This document shows positions 6,169 to 57,153 of a stretch of 64,000 bases of DNA, piece by piece. Location of the stretch: positions 64,001 to 128,000 of the forward strand of contig JBEGVH010000040.1 in the NCBI GenBank assembly GCA_041178425.1, in the 5' to 3' direction. The position numbers and the translations under genes are program-made. The notes beneath the pieces were generated by a model. It saw only the letters and a program-made list of their open reading frames with translations. It searched no databases and was not told where the DNA came from. This DNA comes from Pseudomonadota bacterium. GTDB lineage: Bacteria > Bdellovibrionota > Bdellovibrionia > Bdellovibrionales > Bdellovibrionaceae. Position 1 is the stretch's first letter. The number at the start of each line of letters is the position of its first letter.

Positions 6169-8235
6169 ATGTGGCTACCTAGTTTTTATGGGATCATTAA
6201 ACGACTTACGGTAACTCTGAGAGTTGGCCCCGAAGTCATTTTGGGGGTGATGTTATTGTCGCTCGTTGCTTGTCAGCCGCAAAAAAAAGAAGAGGCAAAT
6301 AACTCGACCCAAAACTCACTGTCTCCGATTGAGAATGACGACGGAACCATTGATGCCCCTGTGGGAACCAAAGATTGTGCACTCAACGGTTCTAATTCTT
6401 CGGTCTGTGTGCTTTCTAAGGATTCCTATTTTTACAAGCAAGAAAACGGTGGTCGCAATCCAGAGGTTAAGGGTCCGTTGGTTTTTAAAGAGAGAACCAT
6501 TCAGTCTCTGCCCGATGGTTGGGTCGCGGCAATGACATCGGCTTCTTTTACCGATCCCAACTTGAAAGCCTCAAATATCCGAAGAGGCATTACCATTTTT
6601 GGAGTGACTGGAACAGTCAACTCGGATCATCCGCTTCCCTGTAATTTAGCGACGATGCCTTTCAGTGAGGCCTCGTGCTTGCTTTCGTCGGGCTTATTTG
6701 CTTACACGAGTGAGTACGGTGGACGCGCGAATGTTTGTTCTATCACCAACGGCTCCCAGCCAGAAAACTGTTGGCTCAACAATTCAAATACCTATTTTCT
6801 TTCAAATCAATTAGTCACCCTGATTAATCGTTGCAGTGCAAACGACGTCGATAGTTCCATTCCGCTCGCTGGTCAGTGTTGGACTCCGGCGGGTCCTTTT
6901 GTTTATACGCAGGCTTACGGTGGGCGTTCGACCCTCTGTAAAACAGATGAAAGTGCCAATGCGACAGCCTGTTGGGCTGAAAGCCTCAACGAAACAAACA
7001 AAGGCATCATTGCCTCTTCGAATACGCAGTCGTGGTGTAATTGGAATGAAAAAACGACTTCTACCTGCAAGGTGAGAATCAACGTAACGATCAATCCTGG
7101 TGATAGTCAGACGCCAGCCAGTCTGCCCTATGGGTATGTGTATCCGCTGCAATACGGGGGGCGAAGTAAGTACTGTTCAAAAAATAGCGACGGAAAGTGC
7201 TGGTTAGCGGTCGAAAAATCACAGCTCGAATCAAACCTCAAACCCGAGATCATTAAAGCGGGAGTTGCCATTTTTGGGGTCGTCGGAAAATTTAAGGGTG
7301 AAGGCGCGTGGAAGTCGGGCGCCCATCGGGATTTAGTGACGAGCCCTCTAGCAATTTCTGATGAGAGTTTTGTTTATGGTGGGGATCGGGACAAAGACAC
7401 CGGTTTCCCCGATGGCTATCGAGAGGTGCCCATGTCGGAGCTCGACGACGAAGGCACGTATTCAAACTCTGTTCTTCCTGTTGATAGAACGGGCTGGGGA
7501 AGCCTCACGTGTGGAACAGGATTAGATGCACAGGGGAATCCGGCGCCGCTACCTGCAGGTTTTGATAGTTGGAGCTTTCGTGCTCGTATGGCGGATTGCG
7601 GAGACGTTTTTGGTACGGCGGCCGTGTGGAACGGCACGACCAACGGAAATGCTGGTCAATCCAAATGGAAGCTTGTCATAAGAACGGGTGATCTCAGAAG
7701 TGGTAAGGGGCGTGAGGTTTGGCTCGATGAAAATACCGGTTTGCTTTGGAGCTCGCTCATATCAACGGCAACGAACTGGTGTAAGGCCTCGGGAAGCAAT
7801 AATATTGCTGGCAATAGTGCGCTTGAAAATGATCCTAATGATATTTGTGATAGCGCCGCTTATCAGAATCTCGCTGGCAATGCGGTGAGTGCCTGTTTTG
7901 AAGGAGATGGATTTAGCACCACGGATTCAACGCTGAGTAATGATGGCAAAGCCAACTTGTTAAAATCTTCGACAACCCTGCCGGTGGCATGGAGACTTCC
8001 TACTATTTACGATTTTGATGTGGGTGAATACAATGGGATGCGCTTTGTATTGCCCGATATGGGAGTCGCATTGAAGGGGATTCCGGGTACATTCTATGAG
8101 TGGACGGCAACAGTGAGTAGCTCAAATTCTAGAGAGGCGTGGGTGGTGCCGTCCCTTCTTGGTGGCCACGGAAAAATAGATCGCTCAATGACTGCGAGGG
8201 TGAGATGTATTGGTCGCGCCAATATTTTAGAATAA
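6169..8235 (+). CDS. Large lipoprotein with Cys-rich YGGR repeats, tail-fibre-like NIxxGxxIFGVxG motifs and a C-terminal DUF1566/Lcl-like domain
   Basis: Lipobox LVAC; four C..C..Y..GGR units; NIRRGITIFGVTG and IIKAGVAIFGVVG; VWLDENTGLLWS, WRLPT, EWTAT, AW and VRCIGR. Confidence 0.85.
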   Translation: MWLPSFYGIIKRLTVTLRVGPEVILGVMLLSLVACQPQKKEEANNSTQNSLSPIENDDGTIDAPVGTKDCALNGSNSSVCVLSKDSYFYKQENGGRNPEVKGPLVFKERTIQSLPDGWVAAMTSASFTDPNLKASNIRRGITIFGVTGTVNSDHPLPCNLATMPFSEASCLLSSGLFAYTSEYGGRANVCSITNGSQPENCWLNNSNTYFLSNQLVTLINRCSANDVDSSIPLAGQCWTPAGPFVYTQAYGGRSTLCKTDESANATACWAESLNETNKGIIASSNTQSWCNWNEKTTSTCKVRINVTINPGDSQTPASLPYGYVYPLQYGGRSKYCSKNSDGKCWLAVEKSQLESNLKPEIIKAGVAIFGVVGKFKGEGAWKSGAHRDLVTSPLAISDESFVYGGDRDKDTGFPDGYREVPMSELDDEGTYSNSVLPVDRTGWGSLTCGTGLDAQGNPAPLPAGFDSWSFRARMADCGDVFGTAAVWNGTTNGNAGQSKWKLVIRTGDLRSGKGREVWLDENTGLLWSSLISTATNWCKASGSNNIAGNSALENDPNDICDSAAYQNLAGNAVSACFEGDGFSTTDSTLSNDGKANLLKSSTTLPVAWRLPTIYDFDVGEYNGMRFVLPDMGVALKGIPGTFYEWTATVSSSNSREAWVVPSLLGGHGKIDRSMTARVRCIGRANILE

Positions 8236-10205
8236 TCTTGCTAGCGACCCTCGTGTGTGTTGGTAGCGGATGCGCGAAGCCAACAGCCACAGAGGACGAT
8301 AGCCTATTAAAGCCAGAGGAGACGGCCATCGCGAGCCCGTTGCCGCGCACCAAGTGCACCGAAGGTGAGAAAGCCTCTGCGCGCTGTATTGTGAACTCCT
8401 CGGAGAGTTTTTCTTATACGTCGTCGTTTAATGGTCGAAATGTCTTTGGTAATAACCTCGAAGGTAACGAAGGATCGGCGTCAGTGACTGTGCCCAAAGG
8501 CTTTTATCAAAGCAAATTTGTGAGCGTAAAAGACCTTGATTTTGTCGCCGCCAATATCGTGAGAGGCGTCAGTATTTTTGGCTTGGTGGGTGATTTGGAT
8601 GCGACGCAGATTCCAGATTGTACCGCCGAGGCCGTCGATTCTGGAGTTGCAAACACCACGAGTTGTCGGTTCACCGCCTCCGGAAAGTACGCCTATCAGA
8701 GCTCTTTTGGTGGAAGAAGTCAGGATTGTTCTATTCAAACAACGCTGGCAGATGGAACCACGGTGAAGGGTCAGTGTTGGCTTAGAAATACCGAACGGTT
8801 ATACGCTTATGAAGAGAGGCTCGACTACCCGGAGTGCAACTTGAACAGTCAGGCCGGCTATTCTTGTAAAACAGGTCCTTCCACTTATCTTTACAATCAG
8901 GCCTATGGAGGGCGAGATATTATTTGCCCGACCAACAAGGTGGTTAATTACAAATGTTTCGTTAAAGATCCCAACTTTGCTGTATACTCGATAATTCCCT
9001 GCAAAGAAAATCCAGAGGTTGATTCGGCCATCAACAACTACGCCTGTTTTCCATCGAGTATCGGGACGTGGGTTTATGATGTTCCCTTTGGGGGGCGATC
9101 TCAGAACTGTGAAGACAATAATAATGGTAATTGTTATTTTCAATTCAGCACCAAAGCGCAGTCATCGGTTAACTTAACGGATGAAAACATCAAAGCAGGA
9201 GAGACGATCTTTGGAGTGATGGGAAGCTTTATCACTCAGGGCTTTTATTGGGGCAGTGGGGCTCACCGAGATGCGGGCGATAAAAGAATGGTTTACCAAA
9301 AGCCACCAGGACCGGTGCCTAATCCTGCGCCCTACATTGAGGCCGAGGCAAGTTTTGGCACCTCACAAACAACACTACCAACAAACTACCGCTTTGTACC
9401 TAAAATTGCGACTGATACCGAAGCTCCCGTAGTCGCAAAAATGGTGAATAGAGTTGGGTGGGGTACTACCGAGTGTGGAGTGGATGTGAGCTCTGACACC
9501 ACAGCGAATAGAACGGTGTTGGAAAAGCGCATTCTCAATTGCGCGGCCAATGCAACGGTCGGGAGCGGCGCGACTTGGGATGGCACCACCAAAGGAAATG
9601 CCGGTCAGGGCGTTTGGAAGCTTGTCACCAGAAAAAACATCAGTGGTTCTATGTATGAAGTGTGGTTAGATTCATCGACCGATCTCCTTTGGAGCGGAAA
9701 GGTCTCAATCCCAACAGGACTTAATTGGTGTAAAGCTTCGGGAAATAGTTTTAGCACTAAAATCGATGAAAAAATGCGCGAAAACGACGCCTCGGGCATT
9801 TGTAATTCAAGCACCTATCAGAATAATGGACTCAATCATCCGATTAGTGCGTGCACTGAAGGTTTTGCCGGTTACTTAGCGTCTGACGATGATTCTTCCA
9901 ATGGGTTCTTGAGCACGGGAACCTTTCAGAATGGAAAAGCGGGTTTAAAAACGGTGGCGCCCTCGCTCAAGGCACAAGGGCGCATTTTTTGGCGTATTCC
10001 CACCATTTACGATTACATGCTCGCCAATCATAACGGGCTTCGCTATGTGCTTCCAGACGCGGGGCCGAATCAAGGAGCCGAAGAGTGGACGGCCACAACT
10101 TATTCGAGGGATCGAAGCATGGCCTGGACCTATAACTCCACCAACGGACTTCGTCGGGTTCAACCTAAAACCTATAATTATAACGTGAGATGCGTGGGAC
10201 GGTAG
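8205..10205 (+). CDS. Paralog of the preceding gene: YGGR-repeat, DUF1566-like lipoprotein
   Basis: ATG at 8205 (MYWSRQYFRIILLATLVCVGSG-C) after GAGGG. Same repeats and the motifs VWLDSSTDLLWS, WRIPT, EWTAT and VRCVGR. The ORF track starts at 8139. Confidence 0.85.
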   Translation: MYWSRQYFRIILLATLVCVGSGCAKPTATEDDSLLKPEETAIASPLPRTKCTEGEKASARCIVNSSESFSYTSSFNGRNVFGNNLEGNEGSASVTVPKGFYQSKFVSVKDLDFVAANIVRGVSIFGLVGDLDATQIPDCTAEAVDSGVANTTSCRFTASGKYAYQSSFGGRSQDCSIQTTLADGTTVKGQCWLRNTERLYAYEERLDYPECNLNSQAGYSCKTGPSTYLYNQAYGGRDIICPTNKVVNYKCFVKDPNFAVYSIIPCKENPEVDSAINNYACFPSSIGTWVYDVPFGGRSQNCEDNNNGNCYFQFSTKAQSSVNLTDENIKAGETIFGVMGSFITQGFYWGSGAHRDAGDKRMVYQKPPGPVPNPAPYIEAEASFGTSQTTLPTNYRFVPKIATDTEAPVVAKMVNRVGWGTTECGVDVSSDTTANRTVLEKRILNCAANATVGSGATWDGTTKGNAGQGVWKLVTRKNISGSMYEVWLDSSTDLLWSGKVSIPTGLNWCKASGNSFSTKIDEKMRENDASGICNSSTYQNNGLNHPISACTEGFAGYLASDDDSSNGFLSTGTFQNGKAGLKTVAPSLKAQGRIFWRIPTIYDYMLANHNGLRYVLPDAGPNQGAEEWTATTYSRDRSMAWTYNSTNGLRRVQPKTYNYNVRCVGR

Positions 10206-16595: not shown

Positions 16596-17513
16596 TTATT
16601 CTTTTTTAATCGAGGTTTCGTCTTTCATTTTGATGCGTCCCTCGTCGTCTACATTAAATTGATAGTGGGTCTTCTGTTGCCCCGTTTTATTGAGTTTGAT
16701 CGTTGGCATTTTAATGTTTGAAAGACTGCTCACCAAACCGGTTTCGACGACGGCGTCGGTTAGGTTTCCTGTTTGATTGTATAAGGTCACGGTGACTTCG
16801 TAGTCACCAGGGGCTAATTTATTTGTGCTCCAGATTTCGGCGCCAGGCCCATAGCGAGAGTCAAGTACGAGTTCTCCTGCGGTGTCGGGGTACTTTCTAT
16901 TTTTAAAGTCATAAAGTTTACCAGAAGGTGTTTTGACCGTTAAGTCGATGTCGTGTTTTTCGGTGTCCCATTTGGTGAAAACAATAAGAAAATTATTCGA
17001 TTTAAGTTCTTCGAGTCGCTTAGCCAATTTCGCTTCGTCGGCAAGCTTCTTTTTGAGTTGTTTTTCGAGCTCTTCAATTTTTTTCTTGAGGGGGGCAGGG
17101 TCTTCAAATGCTTGTGTGGCGGCAATTTCGCGTGATTGAGTTTCGGTTTTGCTCGCAAGATCAGTAATCTGTAATTTTTGTTCCTCGAGTAACTTTTCAA
17201 GTTCGGCAATCTTATTCTCTAATTGAGTGATCTCTTCTTTTTGTTTGCTAACGGTGTCGCGAAGCTCTTTAAGTTCTTTGTCGGTGATTTTAACCATCAC
17301 GGGAGGAGCCTCTTTTTTTGCTTTGTCATTCATAGCATCGGCGATTTCAGCGAGGGCTTGGGCCCCATTGGGGTTTTCGGCGGCAAGAGAGTACATTAAG
17401 ACAAAAAAGCCAAACAGAAGTGTCATTAAATCGGAGTAGCTAACGAGCCATTTTTCATCCACATGAGGCGCATGATTGGAGTTGTGCGACGACTTCTTTT
17501 TGCTCATCCCCAT
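16596..17513 (-). CDS. MotB-like protein with a coiled-coil stalk and a YfaP/DUF2135-like C-terminal domain (no OmpA domain)
   Basis: EKWLVSYSDLMTLLFGFFVLMYS is the MotB transmembrane motif with its Asp. About 100 aa of heptads follow, then WDTEKHDIDLTVKTPSG...LVLDSRYGPGAEI...GDYEVTV. Confidence 0.85.
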   Translation of the reverse strand: MGMSKKKSSHNSNHAPHVDEKWLVSYSDLMTLLFGFFVLMYSLAAENPNGAQALAEIADAMNDKAKKEAPPVMVKITDKELKELRDTVSKQKEEITQLENKIAELEKLLEEQKLQITDLASKTETQSREIAATQAFEDPAPLKKKIEELEKQLKKKLADEAKLAKRLEELKSNNFLIVFTKWDTEKHDIDLTVKTPSGKLYDFKNRKYPDTAGELVLDSRYGPGAEIWSTNKLAPGDYEVTVTLYNQTGNLTDAVVETGLVSSLSNIKMPTIKLNKTGQQKTHYQFNVDDEGRIKMKDETSIKKE

Positions 17514-18388
17514 TAGGCACCTTTTTTCTTGTCTTTGGCACCCTTGAGATCGTAAACGCCGGCATCCATGGGCACCCCATAGACTTCGAAGAAAGATTGT
17601 TTGACCGTTTCTTTTAGTCGCATTTTTTCTTGAAAACTAACCTTGCTCTCGATGAGTTCAAAGATATGGGCGGCAGTGTATCCCTTTTTAATCATATAAA
17701 CGGTATCGATAATCATGTCTCTGAGTGACGACTGCTCTTCCGCTTGTCTCATGGCAAAATCGCTGAGAGGGAGCACCACAAAGTTTGCAACTCCAATTCC
17801 CCAGAATGTTGCGACAAGCGCGACGGCCATGGCTTTTCCAATTTCAGACACGCCACCGGCACCACCCACTTGTTGCATCATCTCAATCATCCCGGCAGAG
17901 GCACCAAGGAGTCCGAGAGCCGGAGGAAACTTGGCAATAGCCACAAGGATTTTGGCATCATCAAAGTACTTACTCACGACGGTTTCTTTTTTATCATGGA
18001 GAAGCTCCGAGAGTTGATCTTCGGTGAGTTCGCTTTTTGCGAGGGCGGCAAAGGCATCTTCGGCAAAAGGGTGTTTTAGTCGCGTTCGTTTCATCGGGTC
18101 GATGGCATAGGCGGCAGTTCCCTTAACCAGCTCAACAGCGACATCATAGCGTGTAATAATTTTTTTGCGAAACAAAAAGCCCATGATCACAAAGTCATAA
18201 ATATCTTTGAGTTTTGAGAGAGGAAACGCAAGAAATGTGACACCAAGTGTGCCAAGGACAACGAGCATGAGGGCGTGCGCATTCAAATACATTCCCGGGC
18301 TTGCAGCGTGCTTGATAACGCCAAAGTAAACAACGCCCGCAATGATGATGCCACCAATCCAATTGCTAAATCTATCGATTGATCCCAT
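17513..18388 (-). CDS. MotA family proton-channel subunit
   Basis: YLNAHALMLVVLGTLG, FPPALGLLGASAGMIEMM and IGKAMAVALVATFWGIGVANFVVLPL. Translationally coupled to the motB-like gene (TAATG). Confidence 0.9.
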   Translation of the reverse strand: MGSIDRFSNWIGGIIIAGVVYFGVIKHAASPGMYLNAHALMLVVLGTLGVTFLAFPLSKLKDIYDFVIMGFLFRKKIITRYDVAVELVKGTAAYAIDPMKRTRLKHPFAEDAFAALAKSELTEDQLSELLHDKKETVVSKYFDDAKILVAIAKFPPALGLLGASAGMIEMMQQVGGAGGVSEIGKAMAVALVATFWGIGVANFVVLPLSDFAMRQAEEQSSLRDMIIDTVYMIKKGYTAAHIFELIESKVSFQEKMRLKETVKQSFFEVYGVPMDAGVYDLKGAKDKKKGA

Positions 18389-35898: not shown

Positions 35899-36843
35899 AT
35901 GAAACTAAAAATAACTGCGGTCATCGCCATTCCTTTATCACTCTTCGTGGGCTGTGCCTTGCCGTCGAGCCGTGCTCGTTTAGCCGATAAGTTGGTGCGT
36001 CCAGTTCCCTTTGAGGCGCGAGGCCTAGCTGAAGCAAGTCAATTTAGACCGAGAGTTTTAGTGATACGATCAAAGATGGATGAAGGAAAAGTTCCGACCG
36101 AGTGGGCAAATAAGGCTGAGGATGAGTTTTGGAGATCGGTCGAACGTGCCGGTTTTTCAACGCTCTTAAAGCCCAGTGACATTGGGATTAATCTCAGAGA
36201 TTTTTTTGATCGAGGAAAACTTGATGTGGCCAAAATCCAACAGACTGCACGAGATAAATCGATACCAATCGTGATGGAGTGGGAATTGGCACCCATTCAA
36301 ATTCACCAAGATGCCGACCCAGTGGGGATGGTAAGACAACGTCGTCGCCAGGTGGTGGTGCAATTTAAAGTAAAACTCGTCGACACTCGAAAGGGCGCCG
36401 AAATTGCCAAAGAAACGGGAGAAGGGCACCATGAGGATCGTGACCTTCTGTGGTTAGAAAAAACAGATAGAAAAACAACTGTGGCCGATTATGATTCGAT
36501 GACCTTGGAGTTTCTCGTTAAACAGGCGGTGGATGACTTGCTGCCTAAGTTGATGGCCCATGTTCAACGGGTGTCTTGGACGGGCCGCGTGGCCATGCTC
36601 AAGGGTGATCGTGTTTATCTTAATGTAGGGCGCCAGTCGGGTGTTCAAGTGGGAGATATCTTAAAAGTGCTCGAAGTGGGTGACGAAGTTTTCGATCCCG
36701 AAACAGGGGATTCTATTGGTAAGGTCCCCGGTCGAATGAAAGGCACTCTAGAGATCATTAGTTATTTTGGCCAAGATGGTTCTGTGGCGGTGGTTCATTC
36801 GGGGGCAGGGTTTCAAGAGAATGATGCCGTTGAGTATTATTGA
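35899..36843 (+). CDS. Lipoprotein with a CsgG-like middle domain and a FlgT C-terminal-like domain
   Basis: Lipobox FVGC, VKLVDTRKG, and WTGRVAMLKGDRVYLNVGRQSGVQVGDILKV...DPETG. Confidence 0.75.
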   Translation: MKLKITAVIAIPLSLFVGCALPSSRARLADKLVRPVPFEARGLAEASQFRPRVLVIRSKMDEGKVPTEWANKAEDEFWRSVERAGFSTLLKPSDIGINLRDFFDRGKLDVAKIQQTARDKSIPIVMEWELAPIQIHQDADPVGMVRQRRRQVVVQFKVKLVDTRKGAEIAKETGEGHHEDRDLLWLEKTDRKTTVADYDSMTLEFLVKQAVDDLLPKLMAHVQRVSWTGRVAMLKGDRVYLNVGRQSGVQVGDILKVLEVGDEVFDPETGDSIGKVPGRMKGTLEIISYFGQDGSVAVVHSGAGFQENDAVEYY

Positions 36844-48766: not shown

Positions 48767-49675
48767 ATGGCATATCAGTTTTTGGCTGGTGACCGGCACG
48801 AAGGTTACTCTAGCAGTATTGTTAAAAAGCTCATGGTTTTTCCGCAAGGCAAAGTAACTCATGTAAAAGAGTTTATAGACGTCTTTAGAAAGGCTCGCGC
48901 GCAGAGTTTCGATGGTATTTTTCTGACAGAAGACATCGGAACAATGAATTTGGGTAAATTGGTTACGGCTTTGCGAGATATCGAAATTAATCGAAGAACT
49001 CCTATTTTTATTTTAAGTTCCAATCCAGCTCAATACGGTGATTTGGCTCGTGAATTTGAACATGTTATGGCCATTCACGTCGAAACGGGAATCAGCGACG
49101 CGATTCAGTGGATTGAAAATTGGTTGTTAAGGGGCCAAGGACAAGAAGATCAAGAGACTCATCCACCAGTTAAAATTGATATGAGAATTGTAAAACAATT
49201 GATTGACGCCACCAAATATTCGATTGAAATTTTCTCGGGCGTTTCTTCTGTGCGATCGATGCCTACTGAAAACTTCTACAAAAGCACCCGATACATCGAC
49301 CATGTTTCTGTGGCGGGAGTGACGGCCATTTTGTCGACGGTTTTTGCTGGGAGTATATTGATTGCCTTTCCCACGGACACATTATTAAGAATCGTTAGTG
49401 GAGCTCTTGGGGAGACGTGTTCGACATTCACCGACGAAGTCAAATCAACAACCGGTGAACTCATCAATATCATTTATAGCCAGGCAAAACGGACCCTCGT
49501 CGAAGATATGAACATGGACTTCATGAAATCGAGACCTTTTGTGATCGATGAACAATCCAGAATCCGAAGCTACCATGGCTCAGCCTCTTATATTGTTCCT
49601 TTTGAAAGCGAAGCTGGTCGATTTTTTCTTATTGTTGCCTTTGAGTCGATTCGTTCTTCAGCAACGGCCGAATAA
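48767..49675 (+). CDS. CheX-family phosphatase with an N-terminal degenerate receiver-like domain
   Basis: C-terminal GSILIAFP, GELINIIYSQAK (E-x2-N) and VPFESEAGRF. N-terminal FDGIFL and TPIFILSS. Confidence 0.8.
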   Translation: MAYQFLAGDRHEGYSSSIVKKLMVFPQGKVTHVKEFIDVFRKARAQSFDGIFLTEDIGTMNLGKLVTALRDIEINRRTPIFILSSNPAQYGDLAREFEHVMAIHVETGISDAIQWIENWLLRGQGQEDQETHPPVKIDMRIVKQLIDATKYSIEIFSGVSSVRSMPTENFYKSTRYIDHVSVAGVTAILSTVFAGSILIAFPTDTLLRIVSGALGETCSTFTDEVKSTTGELINIIYSQAKRTLVEDMNMDFMKSRPFVIDEQSRIRSYHGSASYIVPFESEAGRFFLIVAFESIRSSATAE

Positions 49676-54366: not shown

Positions 54367-57153
54367 ATGCAAACGTCTTCGATTCGGCGGCCTGAAAATC
54401 TCGATAAAATACTGGTGGGAGTGGCTCTTTTTGGGTTTGCTTTTCTTCTCTACTTTTTGATCAATGATTCTTGGATGCATCAACGCAAAGAGGATGGCTC
54501 GAGAACTAAAATTGGATCGGTAGTAGAGTTATCTCTTGATGTGCGTCGGCGTTCAAAAGATGAATTTATTTGGCTTCCCATCGAGAAAACCTTACCAGTC
54601 TTTGAAGGCGACTCCATTTTTACCGGTTCGAAAAGTCATACGACCATCAAATTAGATTCAGGCGTTCGTTTGGTGGTCGACCCCGATTCTCTTATTGTGC
54701 TTGAGCAAACTGCCGATGCGATGAAGCTCGATTTAAAATTTGGTCAACTCCGCGGAAGCCTCGATGACAAGAAAGCCGGGCTTTTAAAAATAACAGTGAA
54801 TAACAATGACATGGCTCTCGCTGGCAAATCAGTGGAATTTGCAATGGAAAAAGTGAAGACAAAGGAGACCAAACTCAAGGTAACAAAAGGAACGGCACAG
54901 CTTCTTGATGTGAAATCTAACAAGAAAATTGAAGTGAACCAGAATCAACAAATCCGCCTCACTCAAGCACCGACGGGGACCGTTCAGCAGCCAGTGGCGG
55001 TGGAAACTTCGATGGACTTCATTAATTTGAGTCGTTGGGCCATGCCGCGAAACCTTTGGTTGCCCCAAAGGCAGGCTTTAAAATTCTCTTGGGAGACCGA
55101 GGGGCCTGTGGACGCCTATGAGTTCACGCTCTCAGAGTCAGCCGATCTGACGAAGCCTTTGGTAAAAGAGCTAGTTCGTCGACCGGCGTATGTTTGGACA
55201 CCCACAGACGATTCAGGAAAAATCTTTTGGCAGGTCAAAGCTCTGAACAGAGCCAAAAAGCAGTCGATTGAGTCTGAAGTGATTCAGTGGTCCTACACGC
55301 TTCAGACGCCTCCCCACTGGACGAATCTCCAGGAGCCAATACTTATCTCTAAGCTAGATCTCAAGGGCATCGATTCGCAAAAGCCTTTGGAGTATTTTGT
55401 GTCTTGGGATGCGCCTCTTAAAACGGCGCAATTTCGTTTGGAATGGGCTCGAAATGCAAAATTCATCGATGCTCAGAGTTCGGAGTTTATGGATCATCGT
55501 TGGCGAATTCCTAAATGGGATACCGGTCAATACTTTCTGAGAGTGCGAAGTGAATCAATCGGGCGGCCGCCATCTCTATGGTCTAGGCCTTTGGTAGTTA
55601 CCATTACGGATCAAGACTCAGAGGGGTTAATTCCTCCCGCACTAGCGGTGACGGAATTGGAGACAGAAGCGAATAAAGGGATAGCCAAAATCGACTGGAA
55701 GCCACAAGAGAAAGCTGTCGACTATGTGATTGAGGTTGCTGATGCTGAGGATTTTGCGAATCTTTTAAAAACGACTCAGTTGAAGAAGTCACCTTGGTCG
55801 AGCGAGAGCCTTCCACAGGGTAGCTACTTTGTGAGAGTGGTTCCTCTCTCCGAAAAAGGGCGCCGTGGTCCGGCGTCAAAAATAATCAAATGGGTCTCTC
55901 GTTCCTCTGGACCTCAATGGTTGTTAGAACAAAAAAAGATAGACGTCGAAATACCACGAGATAGTGCTAACCATTTGATGGCTTTTCCTGACACGATCGT
56001 TCAATGGAAAGAGATGGGTTCTCAAAAAGCCACTCTTTACTATTTAGAGCAAGATCGGTCGCCTGATTTTAAAAATAAGCAAACCAATAAAATATCGGCA
56101 AATCAAATGGTGCTAAAAAATTTGGACGCAGGCGACTATTATTACCGACTTCGTTCTTACTACGCTGATGGAACTTTTTCTGTACCTTCAGAGCCGCTCC
56201 ATCTTCATGTCACAGAGAAAACAGCCATTGGTGTGCCTCAGCCTGTGATGATAACAAAAACCCTTGAGAGCTCGCTCAACTTAGAAGATCAGTCGATGGT
56301 GAAACTAAAGTGGAAAAAAATGAAAGAGGCGGTCCAATTTGTTGTTCAAATGAGTGAAACGGAAGACTTTAAAAATCTCCTCATTGAAAAGAAAGCGGAT
56401 CTTCAGCAGATTGATCTCTCGGTACAAAAAATAGGAACCTACTTTCTCCGAGTGGCTGGTATCTCAAAAAAAGAAGAGCAGGGCCCGTGGAGTGAAATTG
56501 TACCCTGGAAGGTGTCGATGGGAGCTCCGTTATTAAACCCTATGAGCAATGTTCTGATTGAAGTGGAGAGCTCAGAGTCGGCGGTGCCTTTGACTCCTTT
56601 GTTGATAAGTTGGAAGGCTCACAAGAGCTTGACCGACTTTCAATTGCAAATCGCCGAGGATGATGAGTTTAAAAATGTGGTCTACAATGAAAGAGTAAAT
56701 GGTAACGAGTATAGATACAATCTCACAAAGGGCGGAAAATATCGAATCAGAGTGAAGGGGATTGATCCTGGAGGAAGCGAATTAACGTCCTTTTCGGCCA
56801 TGGAATCCATGAGTTTTATAATGAAGCGACCACTGATTGCACCTCATCTGCTGTTTCCAAAAAATAAGACATCCTACGTTCTTGCAAAAATGAAGACATC
56901 AGAGCTTTGGTTAGCCTGGGAAAACAAAGACAAGGGGTCCACTTCTTATCAGGTGGAGTTTTCAAAAGACAGTGAGTTCAGTGAGGTCACCTATACTCGA
57001 AAAACAAACGAACCGCGCCTTCTGCTAGATCAAAAAATTATTAAAGGAAAAATCTACTGGCGGGTTAAAGCTATCAACGACGACCAACAGCTCAGTTCCA
57101 ACTGGAGTGAGGTTTGGAGTATGGCTGTGGTCGATGTGATGAGCGAAGATTAG
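54367..57153 (+). CDS. FecR-domain protein with multiple FN3-like repeats
   Basis: N-terminal TM and VFEGDSIFTG...DSLIVL, then about seven units of W...Y.lE.s...dF....G.Y..RV. Confidence 0.85.
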   Translation: MQTSSIRRPENLDKILVGVALFGFAFLLYFLINDSWMHQRKEDGSRTKIGSVVELSLDVRRRSKDEFIWLPIEKTLPVFEGDSIFTGSKSHTTIKLDSGVRLVVDPDSLIVLEQTADAMKLDLKFGQLRGSLDDKKAGLLKITVNNNDMALAGKSVEFAMEKVKTKETKLKVTKGTAQLLDVKSNKKIEVNQNQQIRLTQAPTGTVQQPVAVETSMDFINLSRWAMPRNLWLPQRQALKFSWETEGPVDAYEFTLSESADLTKPLVKELVRRPAYVWTPTDDSGKIFWQVKALNRAKKQSIESEVIQWSYTLQTPPHWTNLQEPILISKLDLKGIDSQKPLEYFVSWDAPLKTAQFRLEWARNAKFIDAQSSEFMDHRWRIPKWDTGQYFLRVRSESIGRPPSLWSRPLVVTITDQDSEGLIPPALAVTELETEANKGIAKIDWKPQEKAVDYVIEVADAEDFANLLKTTQLKKSPWSSESLPQGSYFVRVVPLSEKGRRGPASKIIKWVSRSSGPQWLLEQKKIDVEIPRDSANHLMAFPDTIVQWKEMGSQKATLYYLEQDRSPDFKNKQTNKISANQMVLKNLDAGDYYYRLRSYYADGTFSVPSEPLHLHVTEKTAIGVPQPVMITKTLESSLNLEDQSMVKLKWKKMKEAVQFVVQMSETEDFKNLLIEKKADLQQIDLSVQKIGTYFLRVAGISKKEEQGPWSEIVPWKVSMGAPLLNPMSNVLIEVESSESAVPLTPLLISWKAHKSLTDFQLQIAEDDEFKNVVYNERVNGNEYRYNLTKGGKYRIRVKGIDPGGSELTSFSAMESMSFIMKRPLIAPHLLFPKNKTSYVLAKMKTSELWLAWENKDKGSTSYQVEFSKDSEFSEVTYTRKTNEPRLLLDQKIIKGKIYWRVKAINDDQQLSSNWSEVWSMAVVDVMSED

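Follow-up and report, generated by a model that had tools for sequence, protein, structure and literature searches.

Within the 64,000-nucleotide stretch of a Bdellovibrionaceae genome that was analyzed here (GenBank assembly GCA_041178425.1, contig JBEGVH010000040.1, positions 64,001 to 128,000 of the forward strand; hereafter the window), two coupled genes encode a MotA-type and a MotB-type motor subunit, and the same locus holds a gene for a predicted outer-membrane barrel and four lipoprotein genes (Table 1). The motA stop codon and the motB start codon share one base, in keeping with a previous interpretation of this DNA from its letters and reading frames (the sequence-only reading), which had called a coupled motA–motB pair at this position. 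In the window scan, the products matched Pfam MotA_ExbB (E 2e-17) and MotB_plug (PF13677, E 6e-15), and no OmpA match was found in the Pfam scan of the window MotB. All of the MotB motifs quoted in that reading are present, at W22...D28, W182, D188-x-D190, D218, and G222-P223-G224-x-E226. Its statement that no flagellar or chemotaxis operon genes lie beside the pair was likewise borne out, the only such matches in the window being an FlgT_C match below threshold (E 2.5e-4) and one gene with a CheX domain, which lie a long way from motA and motB. The label "orphan" is apt with regard to flagellar neighbors but not with regard to conserved partner genes, which are found within the window at distances of 0.1–11 kb.

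A search with the B subunit retrieved 91 proteins, of which the 56 top matches, none annotated as OmpA, were aligned with the query. Across all 57 rows, D28, W182, D188, D190, G222, P223, E226, and Y245 are invariant. In 16 of 17 close homolog pairs of motA, motB, and the barrel gene, dN/dS ranged from 0.016 to 0.13, the remaining pair being saturated. The motor pair is real and maintained under purifying selection, and on these low ratios a pseudogene was rejected. The GC content of the locus (0.45–0.49) resembles that of its surroundings (0.43–0.48) and thus gives no sign of recent transfer; a plasmid search for the locus returned no match. Promoter-like sites were not enriched at the locus (23, against 18.1 in shuffled sequences, sd 3.8).

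Table 1. Features of the motor locus and other annotated features in the window (positions are those of the window).
Feature	Position	Strand	Remark
Unannotated partner (barrel protein), 486 aa	4478..5938	minus	Recurrent third gene of motor loci
Cys-rich lipoprotein	6169..8235	plus	Set A; weak match to Lcl C-terminal domain
Paralogous Cys-rich lipoprotein	8139..10205	plus	Set A; Lcl C-terminal domain, E 1.3e-6, below Pfam cut-off; true start probably slightly downstream
Ig/NHL-propeller lipoprotein, 763 aa	10210..12501	plus	Set A; N-terminal C-x3-[VILM]-x-[DE] motif
Teneurin-NHL-like lipoprotein, 1311 aa	12517..16452	plus	Set A; N-terminal motif; converges on motB
MotB-type B subunit, 305 aa	16596..17513	minus	Transmembrane helix with D28, plug, coiled coil, DUF2135-like tip
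DUF2135/YfaP-like beta sandwich of MotB, TerD-like fold	16614..16994	minus	Residues 174-300
Periplasmic coiled-coil stalk of MotB	16998..17282	minus	Residues 78-172
Transmembrane helix of MotB with ion-binding D28	17376..17456	minus	Residues 20-46
MotA-type A subunit, 291 aa	17513..18388	minus	
FlgT_C match below threshold	35899-36843	plus	Far from motor pair
CheX-domain gene	48767-49675	plus	Far from motor pair

The predicted structure of MotB revealed long helices at residues 78–134 and 140–172 (~90 residues), which agrees with the coiled coil of about 100 residues proposed from the sequence, followed by an all-beta tip domain at residues 176–296 with pLDDT values mostly above 90. Among 43 MotB-type homologs, the distance from the transmembrane helix to the tip varies between 108 and 349 residues. 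As had also been claimed, the C-terminal domain is not OmpA-like: besides the all-beta model and structural matches to TerD proteins, a profile of 29 tips aligned to the OmpA-type MotB of the same genome with a probability of 0.4% (hhalign), and the GH[TSA]D motif occurs in none of 53 family rows. The proposed likeness to YfaP/DUF2135 holds at the level of profiles and predicted structure. The same profile matched a true DUF2135 protein, a YfaP from an alpha-2-macroglobulin operon, with a probability of 97.3% (E 2.3e-11, 93 columns), and MotB residues 170–297 matched a DUF2135 cluster of the Atlas with a TM score of 0.88 over 127 residues. The Pfam DUF2135 model (PF09906), however, gave no match to the tip domain alone at E-values up to 10, nor was it among the top families listed for the 57 homologs. 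Among solved structures, the best matches to the tip were TerD proteins (Foldseek E 7.5e-5), two of which superposed with Z-scores of 9.4 and 8.5 and rmsd values of 3.7 and 3.5 (125 residues aligned in the first), while a search of solved structures with the tip sequence returned no match (best E 0.03). The titles of the TerD entries and the invariance of the residues point to D188, D190, and E226 as a candidate Ca2+ site. Weak matches of the coiled coil to Pfam families (Anthrax_toxA, SMC, LmuB, and others) were put down to composition and rejected.

The tip domain was then surveyed in 401 sampled genomes of the phylum. It was found in 26, one of which (G173) was dropped as a plain YfaP, leaving 25 genomes with 30 loci. 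A MotA/ExbB-family gene lies directly upstream in all 29 loci outside the window, one of these genes being truncated where its contig ends. At one locus (L059:1727-2679, the same locus as L088), motA is split into two open reading frames of 214 and 91 aa, which reflects either a frameshift or an error of assembly. Scanning species genomes yielded 26 named loci, of which 24 have titles of Bdellovibrionota lineages, one is titled "bacterium", and one is titled Competibacterales. One carrier, Bdellovibrio sp. qaytius (CIK05_13655), is in culture and non-pathogenic; it is listed with two motA/B clusters, DUF2135 going unmentioned, in the supplements of PMC11323537.

The best NCBIfam models for the window MotA are those of MotA/PomA (E 1e-19 to 1e-20, far below the cut-offs), and solved stators matched with an E-value of 1e-12. 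Channel residues are kept among 41 family MotAs, with P156 in 36, T194 in 40, and P207 in all 41. The position of PomA T158, which is A163 in the window MotA, is Thr in none of the 41, and that of PomA T185 is A193 in the window. Proton-driven stators carry Ala at both positions (PMC10374538). The A163/A193 combination reads as a proton-type signature, by which the motor would be proton-driven, and a Na+-type assignment was rejected on these residues. The cytoplasmic loop, in turn, has degenerated: alignment to PomA bore out the reported absence of the R-x2-G-x3-L-E motif and showed R88, K89, E96, and D114 replaced by A92, A93, K100, and K118, so that all four charges are lost or reversed. R88, E96, and D114 are indispensable for motility in PomA (PMC10374538). 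The FliG-contact loop (residues 92–118) is hypervariable across the family. At the position of E98 of E. coli MotA, which like R90 contacts FliG there, Glu is present in 1 of 41 family MotAs (32 are gapped), whereas two sets of ordinary stators have it in 11 of 11 and in 13 of 16. Both interfaces of a flagellar stator, that with the peptidoglycan and that with FliG, have thus been lost.

The pair might nonetheless be an accessory flagellar stator that is anchored to an outer-membrane protein rather than to peptidoglycan. By profile, the MotA-type members are indeed flagellar-type, scoring a median of 200 bits on flagellar-type MotAs versus 19 on ExbB/TolQ, every one of the 24 other carrier genomes encodes FliG, and motAB pairs that stand alone in Bdellovibrio have been treated as stators (PMC11323537). 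The MotB of the host's own flagellar cluster, beside fliA/flhG (G000:C10:47877-48773), likewise does not show the usual OmpA-like motifs, and the same is true of its orthologs in several relatives. Against such a role stand the replacement of the indispensable PomA residues, the presence of a TolQ-like A subunit in the same place at 3 of the 30 loci, and the linkage to lipoprotein genes instead of flagellar genes. The host genome encodes FliG and two other motAB pairs, one of them beside fliA, and each other carrier genome has a MotB-plug match outside the motor locus. We regard an accessory stator as very improbable.

The third recurrent gene of the motor loci encodes a protein whose model comprises a signal peptide, periplasmic beta domains, a coiled-coil neck (residues 239–292), and a 10-stranded barrel (293–486). 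The barrel fold matches pOmpT (Z 20.8, rmsd 2.5 over 190 residues) and OpcA (Z 18.7), and the chain ends in Phe in 92 of 129 rows. In an alignment of 130 rows, the highest conservation is periplasmic: C144, C168, and G198 are found in 100%, K199 and G200 in 98%, Glu in 88%, and Trp in 85%. The periplasmic part also shows a conserved motif, F-E-x-x-G-K-G-E-x-W (194–203). An omptin protease was considered and rejected: the fold matches, but no Asp or His column of the barrel reaches 45% in these rows. The protein has no match in Pfam, NCBIfam, or PADLOC, and its periplasmic domain found no usable match in the Atlas (TM at most 0.36), which is not proof of a new fold. The family is bounded, with 196 clusters at 50% identity, 183 of them below 1e-10.

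Counting strong matches that cover the conserved domains, a full-length barrel protein is present in 21 of the 25 motor genomes and in none of the 376 others; eight other genomes gave weak partial matches (E 1e-11 to 1e-6). Seventeen of the 21 barrel genomes had contributed to the search profile, and four (G084, G207, G298, and G400) had not. The barrel gene also lies in the DNA fetched for 19 of 25 named loci (excluding L102), three of the 19 being duplicate genomes. At one locus (L176:1063-3629), two tandem copies of the gene are followed by a subtilase lipoprotein gene. The lengths of the MotB stalk and the barrel neck show a negative trend (rho -0.35, p 0.09, 24 de-duplicated pairs, with the mis-measured L091 included), which is at most a hint of length compensation. 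The co-inherited barrel with its periplasmic domains, the loss of the FliG charges across the family, and the occurrence of FliG and a further MotB in the carriers support the earlier proposal that the motor is non-flagellar and is coupled, across the periplasm, to a partner protein. The sequence-only reading had missed the barrel itself, the lipoproteins, and a second motor with the same tip.

This second motor occupies the 3 loci mentioned above and three more named loci, where a TolQ-like A subunit (so labeled from weak TolQ matches) is paired with a B subunit that bears the same tip on a transmembrane segment which, from its motif, we take to be ExbD-like. The barrel and the lipoproteins of these Bdellovibrionota loci are mostly the same as at MotA-type loci, and all 52 Bdellovibrionota tips group in a single clade (support 100 in a quick tree of 129 columns), while the two types of A subunit cross-score with medians of only 3.8 and 0.2 bits. 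In a careful MotA tree, from which 34 of 99 rows were left out as near-copies or long branches, the MotA-type members form one clade (100/99), and their nearest sampled relatives are MotA paralogs of Bdellovibrionota, several linked to a FliG-like gene (99/97). The suggestion of a possible undescribed motor class thus needs to be qualified: with an A subunit that is flagellar-type by sequence and has these relatives, the motor is best seen as a flagellar-type stator that was rewired, not as a motor lineage of its own. The pairs linked to a FliG-like gene (G000:C28:7772-11381, i.e. L007 and L016, and L144, L148, L157, L158, and L160) consist of a long membrane protein with a FliG-like C-terminus followed by motA and an OmpA-type motB; their MotA, which has partly lost the FliG-contact motif, is among the nearest sampled relatives of the window MotA. 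Elsewhere in the host genome (G000:C9:149790-152183, L013), a pair that looked ZorAB-like on inspection occurs in reversed order, with a 472-aa B-like gene (long coiled coil, OmpA-like end) before a 317-aa A-like gene and then an FHA-like gene. Since neither flagellar interface is retained, the loop on the cytoplasmic side varies, and the engine is replaceable while the tip and the periplasmic patch of the barrel are constant, we place the output of the motor in the periplasm; that the same tip is carried by an unrelated TolQ/ExbD-like motor makes this probable.

Outside the phylum, the TolQ-like form gave 458 matches, with names including Venteria, Thioploca, and SAR86. There (L102:1-1597 and L184-L263; Gammaproteobacteria and others), its genes cluster with others for trypsin-FHA, Ser/Thr kinase, PP2C, and FHA proteins, and the TolQ-like/ExbD-like/coiled-coil/DUF2135 pair looks like a separate undescribed motor-linked signaling module. 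Such clusters, together with an FHA-like gene that precedes the A gene in most TolQ-like Bdellovibrionota loci, could mean that the barrel is a fixed anchor in place of peptidoglycan and that contact with, or damage to, the envelope turns the MotA ring or opens its channel, so that, as in Zorya, a signal or an ion flux results; rotation of the A ring would be favored if the outer membrane is rigid. We consider this reading quite unlikely: the MotA-type loci have no conserved linked cytoplasmic partner, their outer cytoplasmic loop is hypervariable, and no ZorA match, tail, or effector genes were found.

Two unrelated sets of large lipoproteins accompany the motors, and members of one or the other occur at 20 of the 30 loci. 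Set A, with members at 12 loci including the window, comprises when complete two Ig/NHL-propeller lipoproteins (teneurin-like, E 2.7e-8) and two Lcl-domain lipoproteins; set B, with members at eight, comprises when complete a subtilase lipoprotein and two Cys-rich lipoproteins. Even when separated from the motor, the barrel gene still neighbors such genes at L174, L175, and L177, though not at L178. In one family of each set, a short tag, C-x3-[VILM]-x-[DE], follows the lipid-bearing Cys. Among de-duplicated lipobox proteins, 15 of 29 in one family and 8 of 10 in the other carry it, as does 1 of 175 other predicted lipoproteins of the host genome. As the pattern had been chosen after both families were seen, it was tested on Ig/NHL relatives from motor-free genomes, where it was absent from all 14 lipobox-bearing proteins of the 20 relatives tested. 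The two tagged families show no clear homology to each other (hhalign 14%).

Low-complexity linkers lie behind the tag in the two tagged proteins of the window. Together with the dedicated barrel, the signal-like tag, and the large lipoprotein passengers, they would suit an energized export pore, a minimal analogue of the type IX system in which the barrel is the translocon and the motor pulls or pushes the tagged lipoproteins through it. A barrel of 10 strands would be narrow for proteins of 700–1300 aa that are often disulfide-rich, however, many genomes hold motor-free relatives of one of the lipoprotein families, and the comparable barrels of Myxococcus are not the export route of CglB (PMC9946355). 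Those barrels, GltA/B/H, keep a lipoprotein adhesin in place but do not export it (PMC9946355). In view of this precedent and of the 10-stranded lumen, we favor retention over export, which we judge unlikely.

Several further large proteins were observed in these genomes. Giant teneurin-like Ig/NHL proteins of 1000–4100 aa (G000:C9:227221-233112 and L264-L283) are common in the phylum. Directly upstream of motA, and on the same strand, three loci (L048:10874-16957, L049, and L051) encode fibre proteins of 2000–2300 aa with a Peptidase_S74 chaperone. In one subclade (L083, L084, L090, L091, L093, and L100), the motor and the barrel form a single run with no large cargo gene within 10 kb; L100 has an extra YD-shell/RHS protein. 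The window itself also encodes, at 54367-57153 on the plus strand, a protein of 928 aa that contains Ig-like and fibronectin type III repeats.

Taken together, we tentatively favor, at somewhat less than an even chance, a proton-driven motor of the MotA5MotB2 type that reaches the outer membrane and there energizes a barrel whose task is to hold lipoprotein adhesins at the surface or to deploy them. In such a machine, protons would pass at MotB D28 as in flagellar stators, as the conserved residues suggest, and MotB, freed from peptidoglycan, would span the periplasm as a coiled-coil dimer. The putative 5:2 assembly may rotate, and its DUF2135-like tips, probably stiffened by Ca2+, would engage the conserved periplasmic domain of the 10-stranded barrel, which in turn may capture the large lipoproteins through their short N-terminal tag. 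Motor force would then deploy, hold, or release these proteins at the surface, along with accessory lectin-like or protease lipoproteins, and the likely use would be attachment to surfaces or prey. GldM, which serves as a shaft in the periplasm (PMC9389320), is a precedent.

A number of findings weigh against this interpretation. No barrel match was found in four motor genomes (G093, G289, G209, and G116), although G116 holds a weak candidate adjacent to the motor (E 1.1e-7), and none in the 80 loci kept of 167 outside the phylum; as the tip occurs there in barrel-free kinase, FHA, and phosphatase clusters, it need not bind a barrel. At 10 of the 30 motor loci, neither lipoprotein set was found in the DNA fetched, and the six loci with motor and barrel in a single run are flanked instead by a block of MreB-like and histidine-kinase genes and by genes for LpoB-like lipoproteins. 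Of the 401 genomes, 84, mostly motor-free, encode Ig/NHL relatives, and 40 encode the Cys-rich repeat, so that, as a rule, such folds can do without the motor. No tag was seen in two other families of the sets (0 of 13 and 0 of 9), and its evidence consists of counts of a pattern defined post hoc in kin that are not independent. Approximately unbiased (AU) tests rejected neither a joint clade of both A-subunit types (p 0.46) nor a placement of the MotA-type members outside the other flagellar-type MotAs (p 0.23); an exchange of engines is thus suggested by profile scores and architecture, and the AU tests fix neither the root of the tree nor the direction of the exchange. Finally, a MotA ring that has no anchor could turn idly, as has been pointed out for GldL (PMC9389320).

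The same combination of motor, small barrel, and lipoprotein adhesin could also drive gliding or other surface motility, with the motor moving barrel–adhesin complexes along the cell as in the Agl-Glt system. The gliding machinery of Bdellovibrio is stated to be unidentified (PMC13104615), and an MreB-like gene lies near one subclade. The distribution is patchy, though, with the motor in 25 of 401 genomes, in none of the 26 genomes of the best-sampled genus of the window's family, and with no B. bacteriovorus record named among the matches. Furthermore, the neighborhoods hold no conserved cytoplasmic partner that could bind a track, and the host genome has six other TolQ/ExbB/AglR-like genes. 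A gliding engine seems distinctly improbable to us.

On a bolder reading, which we regard as possible but doubtful, the locus would represent an undescribed class of trans-envelope machine. A flagellar stator, recruited as an interchangeable engine, would power by protons a dedicated pathway in which lipoproteins are recognized by their short N-terminal tag, and large adhesins, together with a protease, are displayed or moved on the surface of predatory bacteria; the coiled coil of MotB would be the drive shaft, and a TonB-like transducer would be absent. A flagellar-type engine that has shed both flagellar interfaces, with a tip shared by an unrelated engine, offers a natural test of the modularity of 5:2 motors and of which part turns. 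The loci further offer a new family of outer-membrane barrels and a candidate sorting tag for lipoproteins, whose routes to surface exposure are mostly unsolved (PMC9946355). Such pairs are annotated automatically as flagellar MotB, by which they probably inflate stator counts. In the literature searched, mostly outside subscription papers, no description of this motor–barrel system was found; it is not described in the available parts of PMC11323537, PMC11870529, PMC13104615, PMC9389320, PMC9946355, PMC10374538, and 10.1101/506055, nor in the abstract or Results of PMC12505986, whose accessible supplements do not include DUF2135/YfaP.

Among the known systems close to this pair are the flagellar stators MotAB and PomAB (FIT, TGI4 type; PMC12505986), with which it shares a MotA/PomA-type A subunit, the MotB transmembrane helix, plug, and Asp and the channel Pro and Thr residues. 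Unlike these, it has no OmpA-like peptidoglycan-binding domain, a FIT trait according to PMC12505986, its FliG-contact charges are lost, its NCBIfam scores fall far below the cut-offs, and it is linked to a barrel and lipoproteins. With the YfaP/DUF2135 and TerD proteins, it has the beta sandwich in common, which here forms the tip of a motor subunit and lies below the reach of Pfam DUF2135. To our knowledge, known MotA/ExbB-family motors either have their B dimer fixed to the wall or act by way of a separate transducer. Like ExbBD-TonB and TolQR-TolA, the present system would deliver the proton motive force to an outer-membrane target, and the minority variant of the locus even uses a TolQ/ExbD-like motor. 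The window pair, in contrast, is not of the ExbB/TolQ plus ExbD/TolR type, its target would be a 10-stranded barrel rather than a plugged transporter or TolB-Pal, and no TonB/TolA-like transducer is conserved in the motor loci. Zorya ZorAB is, as this pair may be, a non-flagellar motor of the 5:2 type. Zorya itself was rejected on account of the missing ZorA tail (the A subunit has 291 aa), OmpA-like ZorB domain, and linked ZorC/D/E, and in PADLOC neither MotA, the barrel, nor the lipoproteins matched, a weak ZorB1 match to the transmembrane region (E 0.0034) being the only one.

In its layout, the locus resembles two other known machines. With Myxococcus Agl-Glt (PMC9946355), it shares the proposed logic of an inner-membrane ion motor, a small barrel (GltABH), and large lipoproteins (CglB); the motor here, however, is MotA-type and not AglRQS-type, the B subunit seems to reach across the periplasm by itself, no Glt-like genes are conserved in the loci, where the barrel and the lipoproteins are the only conserved neighbors, and no match of the barrel or the lipoproteins to Glt proteins or CglB was detected. 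With GldLM/PorLM of the type IX system (PMC9389320), it shares a long periplasmic B-subunit shaft that ends in protein domains and not in a wall anchor. Here, the shaft is a coiled coil with a single beta sandwich, no homology to GldLM was detected, no ring proteins or large translocon accompany it, and the motor, the barrel, and the scanned neighbors have no Pfam or NCBIfam match to type IX/Gld families. Thus, the layout is like that of Agl-Glt or GldLM, yet the locus fails a defining test for each of flagellar stators, Zorya, Ton/Tol, Agl-Glt, and Gld; its engine is best described as a variant of the 5:2 kind of motor, and the locus as a whole is possibly a new class of machine.

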